Shown here one piece after another: positions 1,225 through 1,794 of a stretch of 64,000 nucleotides of DNA. The stretch lies in NCBI RefSeq assembly GCF_003018255.1, contig NZ_CP027440.1; one strand, 5' to 3'. The first letter of the stretch is position 1. Each line of letters opens with the position of its first letter. The DNA comes from Escherichia coli (GTDB taxonomy: Bacteria > Pseudomonadota > Gammaproteobacteria > Enterobacterales > Enterobacteriaceae). The notes below the pieces were generated by a model that saw only the letters and a list, made by a program, of their open reading frames with translations, ran no database searches and had not been told where the DNA came from. Position numbers and translations under genes: made by a program.

Positions 1225-1400
1225 TCGATCGACAAAAACGATCGATTCGATTTGTTTAATTGATACAACAAATAGATTTAAAAGTCATCAACAATGATTC
1301 AGGGCGGTGATTATTTACTTAAAGAAACGAAGAGTTAGGTGGTGAAAACGATCATAAAATGATCATTTTATTGACTTTTTATACAGTGAAGGTAGGATCG
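1225..1400 (-). promoter_or_regulatory. com-mom upstream control region with GATC (Dam site) cluster
   Basis: Five GATC sites lie at 1227, 1240, 1350, 1361 and 1396. The first two sit in the palindromes TCGATCGA and CGATCGAT, 13 bp apart. There is also a dyad ATTTGTT-N9-AAACAAA at about 1250-1275. Mu Pmom is Dam/OxyR controlled through clustered GATCs. Confidence 0.5.
1371..1398 (+). promoter_or_regulatory. Candidate sigma70 promoter directed toward the plus-strand zinc-ribbon gene
   Basis: TTGACT (1371-1376), 16-nt spacer, TAGGAT (1393-1398). Confidence 0.35.
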
Positions 1401-1450
1401 CGCGTATATGTAGTATGTTTCAAATCAACAGGATACTACATAAAAGGGAA

Positions 1451-1478
1451 ACCCAGCATAGCTGGAACTATGCTGGGT
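1451..1478 (-). terminator. Intrinsic terminator-like hairpin (minus-strand sense)
   Basis: Perfect 10-11 bp stem ACCCAGCATAG/CTATGCTGGGT with a 6-nt loop. On the minus strand it is followed by TTCCCTTTTATG. It would insulate com-mom from upstream read-through. Confidence 0.55.
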
Positions 1479-1585
1479 CAATCTGTAAAAACTTGCATCA
1501 ATGCTTTACTTCGAGCTCGTGGCGTATCCTATGATATTCCCCGGTCTCCTGTAAAGCAGAGATGCATAAAAAGGAGATCTTTATC

Positions 1586-1756
1586 ATGGATAAAGAGCCT
1601 GTTTGCCCTGCCTGTAAGACTCCCTTACAGCTCATCTATCGCCGTTCTCGATCTCAAAATGGCAAGACATACAAACCAAAAAATGCTTCCTGTTTCAGGA
1701 TGCTGATATGTCCTGCCTGTTCTCCCCGGAGGGAAAATACACAAAACGTGCATTAA
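1586..1756 (+). CDS. Small zinc-ribbon protein (56 aa, two CPAC motifs), opposite orientation to all neighbouring prophage genes
   Basis: MDKEPVCPACKTPLQLIYRRSRSQNGKTYKPKNASCFRMLICPACSPRRENTQNVH. AGGAG lies 9 nt upstream of the ATG at 1586. The gene is followed by a GC-rich hairpin. Confidence 0.55.
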   Translation: MDKEPVCPACKTPLQLIYRRSRSQNGKTYKPKNASCFRMLICPACSPRRENTQNVH

Positions 1757-1765
1757 CAAATTCAC

Positions 1766-1785
1766 CCGGCAGGGAAACCTGCCGG
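1766..1785. terminator. Bidirectional terminator-like hairpin between convergent genes
   Basis: CCGGCAGG-GAAA-CCTGCCGG (8 bp stem, GAAA tetraloop) lies between the stop of 1586..1756 (+) and the stop of 1795..2040 (-). Moderately T-rich tracts follow on both strands. Confidence 0.5.
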
Positions 1786-1794
1786 TCGGTATTG

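Follow-up and report, generated by a model that had tools for sequence, protein, structure and literature searches.

What is the small plus-strand gene that lies next to the com-mom control region of a Mu-like prophage, and why does so long a leader precede it? These questions are raised by positions 1371-1790 (plus strand) of a 64,000-nt stretch of Escherichia coli DNA (assembly GCF_003018255.1, contig NZ_CP027440.1; one strand), the whole of which we call the window and of which nucleotides 1-5100 are the right end of a Mu-like prophage in reverse orientation. We hold it somewhat better than an even chance that this region is a self-contained plus-strand accessory unit, or moron, with riboregulated translation, placed in a variable slot between the cargo and tail-fiber genes and the com-mom control region. 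On comparative sequence evidence its gene (1586-1756, plus strand), which encodes a 56-amino-acid (aa) zinc ribbon with four cysteines in two CPAC knuckles, is real and conserved. The structured 5' leader of 181 nt (1405-1585, plus strand), counted from the predicted mRNA start to the ATG, shows stronger conservation than the gene, accompanies it to other positions, and is reused before another ORF.

An earlier reading of this DNA from its letters alone (the sequence-only reading) had described an orphan open reading frame (ORF) of 56 aa with two CPAC knuckles and an AGGAG Shine-Dalgarno (SD) sequence. The frame, the knuckles and the AGGAG (1572-1576, plus strand, 9 nt 5' of the ATG) are all there; the gene is not an orphan, as Salmonella Mu-like prophages hold an orthologue family in the same slot beside com. 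A phmmer search of 1.84 billion proteins returned near-identical E. coli sequences and a single distant relative, P0005 (53 aa, 47% identity, E = 2.7e-7), whose gene occupies the plus strand of Salmonella Mu-like prophages at a distance of about 390 nt from com, with either com-mom or com-C5-methylase as its neighbors. The P0005 cluster comprises 59 Salmonella enterica sequences, the listed members of which lie on roughly 1000 contigs, and these orthologues (52-53 aa) are annotated there as a stand-alone hypothetical protein. The four cysteines, the GKTY and proline of a GKTY.P motif, and a CSP motif are invariant between the E. coli and Salmonella subfamilies, while single Salmonella variants have one residue of the second knuckle altered. 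Between the genera the proportion of non-synonymous differences (pN) is 0.32 against a saturated synonymous proportion (pS) of 0.78, a pN/pS of about 0.4, and within Salmonella pN/pS is 0.1-0.4. The peptide is thus conserved in related prophages, so the condition under which the sequence-only reading would have been refuted does not hold, and the orthologues, together with the promoter comparison described below, uphold the view that this is a real, separately promoted, convergent micro-gene. Its shortness, its lack of a database family and the existence of some broken alleles could be taken to mean that the frame is a chance opening in non-coding DNA, but a syntenic orthologue at that level of significance, with cysteines and length conserved and pN below pS, makes this highly improbable.

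The family appears, from the sequences searched, to be confined to Mu-like prophages of E. coli and Salmonella. Searching with a profile built from the family alignment brought up no additional members, a metagenome scan found E. coli-type copies only, and tblastn against 50,697 phage records found only two Shiga toxin (Stx) phages with a Mu-like insert. The cassette region is present in 200-216 of 5426 complete E. coli genomes, mostly of serogroups O157, O145, O103, O111 and O121; the carriers are mostly Shiga toxin producers, and prophage Sp18 of strain Sakai is among them. These results define a new lineage-restricted family of small zinc-ribbon proteins, found in 200 of the 5426 E. coli genomes and on about a thousand Salmonella contigs.

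Current annotation describes the locus differently. PGAP and the Sakai record call a 154-aa ORF (ECs_4996, WP_115801860.1), which becomes a "frameshifted" pseudogene in window-type genomes and in other alleles. That this longer frame is the true gene, and the window copy its frameshifted remnant, would accord with the PGAP call and with the match of its first 104 N-terminal residues to phrog_26524. Alignment of the alleles speaks otherwise, because the 154-aa frame requires two separate, independent 1-nt insertions, an A in a poly-A run and a G after ATGGAT. It would also cross the promoter, the GATC sites and the hairpins described below, and it is broken in at least six allele types (window-type, L001, L009, L011, L012 and L014), of which L001 carries +3 and -1 indels in the region of the second leader hairpin. 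The Salmonella loci lack a 154-aa ORF and retain the 52-53-aa ORF alone, and phrog_26524 probably gathers the same mis-called ORF. The short ORF survives in the Sakai allele, since the inserted G supplies it with a new start codon, an ATG in frame (MKEPVCPAC...). Judged by this allele comparison the RefSeq 154-aa ORF is an artefact of two 1-nt insertions, and we give the alternative very little credence. Genomes of Shiga toxin-producing E. coli are consequently mis-annotated on a wide scale, in that the 154-aa "hypothetical protein" or "frameshifted pseudogene" should read as a gene of 55-56 aa.

Transcription of the unit is predicted to begin near 1405 from a sigma-70 promoter, P+ (1371-1398, plus strand), with a -35 hexamer TTGACT (1371-1376), a 16-nt spacer and a -10 hexamer TAGGAT (1393-1398). 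The sequence-only reading had proposed this promoter; the elements are present, but the match by itself does not rise above chance, since a promoter scan of this one sequence gave 2 sites against 2.7 +/- 1.4 in shuffles. Support for P+ comes instead from comparison with relatives. Among the compared loci, which carry L-numbers (L015, L030, L033, L037, L073, L080, L082 and L084 are from Salmonella, L012 from E. coli; L004 is a FORC_029-type prophage and L006 is E. coli AST198), L015, L030 and L033 show TTGACT-16-TAAGAT in the homologous position, though most of the spacer differs, and L037 and L082 have unrelated sequence bearing a near-consensus promoter, TTGACG-16-TATAAT (11/12), at the same distance from the first leader hairpin. 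These comparisons are good evidence that plus-strand transcription starts near 1405, and we think it quite likely that P+ is active as a promoter. A perfect 18-bp palindrome, ATAAAATGATCATTTTAT (1354-1371), is centered on a GATC (Dam) site and abuts the -35 hexamer; in L015 a GATC also lies a few bases 5' of the -35. A second GATC, at 1396, overlaps the -10 (TAGGATC) and has been lost from the lineage whose promoter was replaced by one with TATAAT. With GATC sites so placed at both hexamers, P+ could respond to Dam methylation.

A promoter firing away from mom from within the mom upstream region has a precedent in phage Mu, where momP2 is divergent from mom, overlaps momP1 and has no known product (PMC4287176, PMC3378877; citing Balke 1992 and Sun & Hattman 1998). 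P+ differs in lying at least 100 bp further upstream, in DNA absent from Mu, and in being predicted to drive a protein-coding mRNA, so that momP2 is a precedent for P+ and not its homologue. Between the com start and P+ we also observed a palindrome, AATCGATCG-N7-CGATCGATT, with two GATC sites and a T-rich tail (1223-1247, plus strand; 5659-5677 in L015). It is conserved in Salmonella, is called terminator-like on the plus strand by our scan, and could stop host read-through that enters at the prophage end, antisense to mom, or join in the Dam/OxyR control of mom.

The leader that would follow this promoter is long, as the sequence-only reading had estimated (~190 nt), and is predicted to be highly structured, the whole folding at -69.9 kcal/mol (z = -6.8). 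Hairpin 1 (1407-1442, plus strand) starts at the predicted mRNA 5' end, with arms TATGTAGTAT (1407-1416) and ATACTACATA (1433-1442); in Salmonella its stem is retained and its loop has diverged. Hairpin 2 (1451-1478) is a perfect 11-bp stem, 1451-1461 with 1468-1478, around a 6-nt loop, and it folds at -20.7 kcal/mol (z = -4.85), with none of 200 shuffles folding as well. Its stem occurs in relatives in at least eight different sequences, all of 9-13 bp, and the fact that these differing sequences all pair indicates compensatory change. Next to it on the minus strand comes UUUCCCUUUUAU, and the terminator scan calls hairpin 2 terminator-like there, with 13 pairs and the tail TCCCTTTTAT; a sub-stem is called in L082 and none in L015. 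The perfect hairpin at this place had been anticipated and is borne out by the fold; its terminator-like look on the opposite strand had been noted too and agrees with the scan call in the window.

Domain 3 (1495-1565, plus strand) is predicted to be a long irregular hairpin of 22 consensus pairs with an apical UAUC-CUAU-GAUA. Across 10-13 variants it is 95-96% paired, and every one-sided change of a pair yields a G.U wobble, which on the other strand would be an A.C mismatch. Within its 3' strand lies a 17-mer, GGTCTCCTGTAAAGCAG (1543-1559, plus strand), that is invariant in the aligned variants except in E. coli L012, where the first base is A. The only other match in the window has 3 mismatches, and a scan of 185,579 species-representative genomes (596 Gb) gave 29 matches in unrelated taxa, a chance level, with none in Enterobacteriaceae. 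As the 17-mer is unchanged where its pairing partner has changed, it must be under some constraint other than the domain 3 helix. Its first 8 nt, GGUCUCCU (1543-1550), constitute an anti-SD complementary to the SD region AGGAGAUC (1572-1579). Further downstream the start codon itself is predicted to be enclosed, with AUG in the loop of an 8-bp hairpin, UCUUUAUC-AUG-GAUAAAGA (1578-1596, plus strand), that is retained in Salmonella, where a C-to-U change gives U.G. Opening the leader from the SD through the AUG has a computed cost of 6-12 kcal/mol, and of 4.2 in the Sakai +G allele.

Comparison of the window with Salmonella shows where the constraint lies. Identity is 75% in the leader, 81-84% in the SD-start region and 52% in the rest of the ORF, alongside 47-57% in the Pmom region, 63-71% in com and 73% in mom. 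FORC_029-type E. coli prophages carry the same leader up to GCAGAGAT, followed by a different ribosome-binding site and an unrelated 68-aa ORF, which PGAP leaves unannotated and which shows 10-12 synonymous against 4-6 non-synonymous codon differences and is therefore coding. In Salmonella the leader and the zinc-ribbon gene occur together in four contexts, namely with their own promoter, with a substituted promoter, behind a 51-53-aa ORF, and as the last gene after three plus-strand genes; in the last of these (L080/L084) the leader lies about 1.4 kb from com and is still directly 5' of the zinc-ribbon gene. Since the leader stays with an ORF across contexts, it serves the downstream ORF and not mom.

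This bears directly on the alternative that the leader's main role is in mom control, exerted at the level of DNA or through the minus strand, with hairpin 2 as an insulating terminator beside Dam/OxyR sites, or with an upstream promoter and attenuator feeding com-mom, and with the small ORF incidental. Read on the minus strand, hairpin 2 does resemble a terminator and stands immediately upstream of the GATC cluster and Pmom, Mu has the divergent momP2 in this region (PMC4287176), and mom is toxic when expressed at the wrong time and is kept in check by many layers of control (PMC3378877). Yet in L080/L084 the leader stands far from com, behind three plus-strand genes, Mu itself lacks the leader element, AST198 has lost the leader by deletion and kept its com operon, and the G.U wobbles and the anti-SD/SD complementarity are meaningful on the plus strand only. 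We therefore consider mom control by the leader unlikely. The functional tie to mom suggested by the sequence-only reading is not supported, in that the gene is also found beside com-C5-methylase operons and, in one lineage, at that 1.4-kb distance from com.

Several further observations concern the leader and its companions. A leader unit consisting of ACTACATAAA, hairpin 2 and the 5' part of domain 3 is tandemly duplicated in L005, L034, L035, L036, L037, L073 and L080, with a junction that is alike in E. coli and Salmonella, and the duplication yields alternative pairing partners and a second copy of hairpin 2. The loop and 3' arm of hairpin 1 (L015/L033) are homologous to the 3' end of the 51-53-aa ORF (...NWLNECTDTT*; L034/L073 2132-2287), for which reason part of the leader seems to derive from a truncated gene; that ORF is in turn related to the C-terminus of the 81-85-aa gene of a Salmonella plus-strand trio. 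In L004 the 68-aa ORF (4357-4563, plus strand) shares 38 nt with the 3' end of a 66-aa ORF that is annotated on the minus strand (4526-4726), and neither has a Pfam or PADLOC match. An Rfam scan of 1100-2100 gave tsr24 as its best match, at 19.9 bits against a gathering score of 50. We rejected a conserved leader peptide, as the 39-aa ORF at 1415-1534 has no start in Salmonella; CsrA-type GGA loops, which are not conserved in the hairpin-2 loops; and a type III toxin-antitoxin with repeated RNA units, for which the protein is far too small and unrelated and the units number at most two. Two loci from a first viral scan, L029 and L031, were chance matches and were dropped.

How, then, might such a leader act? 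That it acts in cis on translation we regard as probable. In the mechanism that we propose, P+ would start an mRNA near 1405 whose 181-nt leader would fold into hairpin 1, hairpin 2 and domain 3, would end in a strong SD and the 8-bp hairpin with AUG in its loop, and would so gate translation of the basic zinc ribbon. While domain 3 is closed, its 3' strand would hold the invariant anti-SD; were the 5' strand removed, the anti-SD would pair with the SD and translation would be switched off. The likeliest trigger would be an antisense RNA of about 75 nt, and a candidate for its source lies inside domain 3, where a promoter-like site on the minus strand, P- (1526-1555), has a -35 TTTACA (1555-1550), an 18-nt spacer and a -10 TAGGAT (1531-1526). 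Across all 8 lineages compared neither hexamer varies and the spacing is constant, and the scan also finds the site in L015 and L082. The putative cis-antisense RNA (minus strand, 1440-1519) would run from about 1519 to hairpin 2 and a U-rich tail, and is complementary to hairpin 2 and the 5' half of domain 3; hairpin 2 may also block minus-strand read-through towards Pmom. The sequence-only reading had suggested antisense control or transcriptional interference, which remains plausible, but the likely partner would be P- inside the leader (1555 to 1526) rather than the convergent DUF826 operon.

Antisense pairing was mimicked in folding by masking exactly the complementary leader segment. Upon masking, the expected number of anti-SD:SD pairs rises from 0 to 7.7-8.0, and the probability that the SD is unpaired, which without masking is 0.2-0.4 in the window, Sakai, L001 and L015, 0.17 in L082 and 0.13 in L005, drops to at most 0.01. 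In L033, L004 and L005 the anti-SD:SD pairs are substantially formed in the ensemble without masking, and in L037 and L082 they are marginal, with the helix present in the minimum-energy fold of L037. Taken together, these calculations make antisense and anti-SD control what we infer to be the most economical mechanism, though we would place the anti-SD switch at somewhat less than an even chance and treat the antisense RNA as more tentative still.

Known cis-antisense systems include hok/sok and other type I toxin-antitoxins (SymE/SymR, RalR/RalA), P22 sar/ant, and IS10 RNA-OUT/RNA-IN. The present locus resembles them in its convergent promoters about 115 bp apart, its short predicted countertranscript ending in a hairpin, its long structured target leader and its occluded ribosome-binding site. 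It differs from them in that the antisense RNA, here a prediction, would spare the SD and AUG and act indirectly via anti-SD release, and in that the 56-aa protein is not hydrophobic. With the anti-SD platforms of riboswitches and RNA thermometers it shares an SD-complementary segment that is either locked upstream or paired with the SD, whereas the leader has no ligand-binding aptamer or Rfam family.

A more specific version of the same idea is a type I toxin-antitoxin-like pair, in which the zinc ribbon would be harmful when over-made and the ~75-nt antisense RNA would be the antitoxin. A small ORF behind a long structured leader, a convergent promoter-like site followed by a hairpin, an occluded translation start, the release of the anti-SD on masking and the movement of the cassette as a unit all fit such a pair, and RalR offers an example of a 64-aa prophage protein under small-RNA control. 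The protein, however, is basic and hydrophilic and not a membrane peptide (SymE and RalR being exceptions to that pattern), it matches neither Lar/RalR nor SymE nor any PADLOC family, the leader also serves the unrelated 68-aa ORF, and the antisense RNA is a prediction. Alleles that keep the leader and the putative antisense gene and have lost the ORF start or frame count neither for nor against a toxin. On balance we judge a toxin-antitoxin pair improbable, if a little less so than mom control by the leader.

A broader and frankly speculative extension of the favored reading, which we also think improbable, is that the leader is an undescribed portable riboregulatory module of Mu-like prophages, in which a countertranscript opens a helix and the freed anti-SD silences interchangeable, fast-evolving effectors (the zinc ribbon or the 68-aa protein) that might act with the mom or C5-methylase operon in anti-restriction or as a toxin-like safeguard. 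Should the anti-SD/antisense model hold true, the locus would offer a translational switch that is both compact and portable and, for a transposable phage, a new case of control by sense and antisense transcripts.

Several of our results weigh against a riboregulated accessory unit. Covariation in domain 3 is weak, with 3 pairs changing on both sides and 24-33 of 500 shuffles reaching the observed values, so the fold is plausible rather than proven. In the window-type leader the anti-SD is locked inside domain 3 and forms no pairs with the SD at equilibrium, which means that the switch needs a trigger, and any opening of domain 3 gives the same computed effect as antisense masking. The sequence around the P- hexamers is conserved in any case, with invariance also at 11 of the 18 positions of the spacer, and the conservation of the hexamers may therefore be a by-product. 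The run of U residues that follows hairpin 2 on the minus strand is poor, most of all in Salmonella (UCCCUUUAUGU). L080-type prophages carry the cassette with no promoter of its own directly upstream. The gene is also dispensable in view of its decayed alleles (frameshifts in L009 and in Salmonella L033, an 11-nt SD-ATG deletion in L014, C7Y in L019), although broken alleles are as expected of dispensable prophage cargo. The fold of the protein is a generic zinc ribbon with no informative neighbors, and our literature look-ups found no paper naming ECs4996 and no transcript or protein data for the locus.

What the protein does can be approached from its composition and predicted structure. AlphaFold2 models the protein (mean predicted local distance difference test score, pLDDT, 79) as a zinc ribbon of four strands plus a disordered tail. 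It is strongly basic (isoelectric point 9.8; 11 lysines and arginines against 3 aspartates and glutamates) and contains no hydrophobic segment (grand average of hydropathy, GRAVY, -0.88). Pfam gave only sub-threshold generic ribbons, the best being Trm112p at 17 bits against a cut-off of 22; a PDB sequence search gave nothing below E = 0.35; Foldseek reached E = 1.7 (PDB) and 0.043 (BFVD), all to uncharacterised proteins; and PHROGs and PADLOC gave no informative family. Neither by profile nor by fold (Pfam, PADLOC, PDB, Foldseek) was there a match to Ogr/Delta, Lar/RalR, SymE or TFIIB/TFIIS-type ribbons. The protein is most likely a nucleic-acid-binding regulator or effector, with nucleic-acid binding as such an even proposition in our estimation.

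Com invites comparison, being itself a small four-cysteine zinc ribbon that recognizes the RNA motif CC(N)2-3GAG (PMC6483171). The sequence-only reading had accordingly raised a second Com-like regulator, that is, a translational activator that would bind an RNA hairpin and switch on mom or another gene. Like Com (PF10122; PMC6483171), the protein is small, basic and encoded next to com (within 400 bp), and the translation start is buried in a hairpin at both loci. In sequence and profile the likeness goes no further than one CPxC(K) knuckle, and the spacing between knuckles differs. A Pfam scan at E <= 1 found no Com match for the 56-aa protein, whereas the adjacent Com scores 46.1 bits, and hhalign of the family against the Com alignment gave a probability of 7.4% over 7 columns covering that one knuckle. 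No gene overlaps or follows the 56-aa ORF in the window as a target, the gene is found with mom, with C5 methylases and far from com and so is not tied to mom, and FORC_029-type prophages keep com-mom with no zinc-ribbon gene. Reading through the leader alignments revealed no conserved occurrence of the published motif, for which no pattern search was run, and on this basis we also set aside regulation of the leader by Com. A Com-like activator is not supported and is a weaker candidate than either a toxin-antitoxin pair or mom control by the leader.

The probable 3' boundary of the proposed unit is hairpin 3, CCGGCAGG-GAAA-CCUGCCGG (1766-1785), an 8-bp stem with z of about -3.8 to -4.0 that lies between the convergent genes, just where a GAAA-tetraloop hairpin separating the gene from the convergent 81-aa gene had been reported. 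In the window its U tail is weak and the terminator scan does not call it. FORC_029-type prophages have a corresponding hairpin downstream of DUF826 with a distinct U tail on the minus strand, from which we take hairpin 3 to be primarily the terminator of the cargo operon. It probably ends the plus-strand transcript as well. The Salmonella copies have a canonical intrinsic terminator, ACTCCAGCC-TTATT-GGCTGGAGT, followed by TTTTCT.

Morons are autonomous promoter-gene-terminator units inserted between conserved phage genes, as in lambdoid phages and HK97. The cassette shares with them its own predicted sigma-70 promoter, a single small ORF that faces against the late genes around it, a factor-independent terminator that is of canonical form in Salmonella and a candidate in the window, and presence in some relatives and absence from Mu and AST198 at a cargo hot spot. 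It departs from them in its long leader, better conserved than the ORF and common to an unrelated ORF, and in a possible internal antisense promoter. The cassette is best regarded as a lineage-restricted accessory unit and not as a new kind of system.

The surroundings of the unit are those of a Mu-like right end with additional DNA. On the minus strand lie mom (288-1025; Pfam Mom, 258 bits) and com (979-1179) to one side, and genes for DUF826 (1795-2040), DUF1378 (2076-2255), a SASA/DUF6645 esterase (2313-4361) and a gin-like invertase (4461-5021) to the other. In phage Mu only 20 bp separate the end of gin from the annotated Pmom region and the cassette is absent, so that the window DNA between gin and com is extra and the earlier statement that Mu offers no counterpart is borne out. 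The two sequences have diverged too far in this region for an alignment of the window with Mu to place Pmom, the activator site or the OxyR sites reliably. The gene had been claimed to stand alone on the plus strand in the late part of the prophage, but the invertible tail-fiber segment by gin has plus-strand genes too (5148-5471 in the window), and the FRIK2455 annotation shows two plus-strand tail-fiber genes in that segment.

The slot beside mom emerges as a hot spot for the exchange of cassettes, a point of relevance to the way in which Mu-like prophages gain cargo such as an Stx-phage-type esterase module. In FORC_029-type prophages com-mom is retained and another cassette replaces the zinc-ribbon gene. 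In AST198 about 390 bp have been deleted between two GGTGATT repeats (L006 4060-4090 against L004 4075-4480), which removed the Dam sites, promoter, leader and two-thirds of the 68-aa ORF and left the com operon in place. The cargo between gin and mom in the window (1795-4361), i.e., the esterase with DUF1378 and DUF826, forms a set that we take to be typical of the late region of Stx-converting lambdoid phages (NanS-p type), here inside a Mu-like prophage; Salmonella L073 holds the esterase alone of that cargo. The plus-strand trio of Salmonella (L015 6362-7274; L080 1326-2252) encodes proteins of ~100, 81-85 and 122-123 aa, either after or before the zinc-ribbon gene, and has no Pfam match, its third gene showing a weak PADLOC match to PD-T4-7 (E = 0.0025). 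Finally, in AST198 (L006 2744-3950) and many Salmonella Mu-like prophages (L015 4398-5610; L073-L085) a C5 DNA cytosine methyltransferase (PF00145), and not mom, follows and overlaps com, an arrangement of genes which suggests that Com-type translational control has passed to another DNA-modification enzyme.

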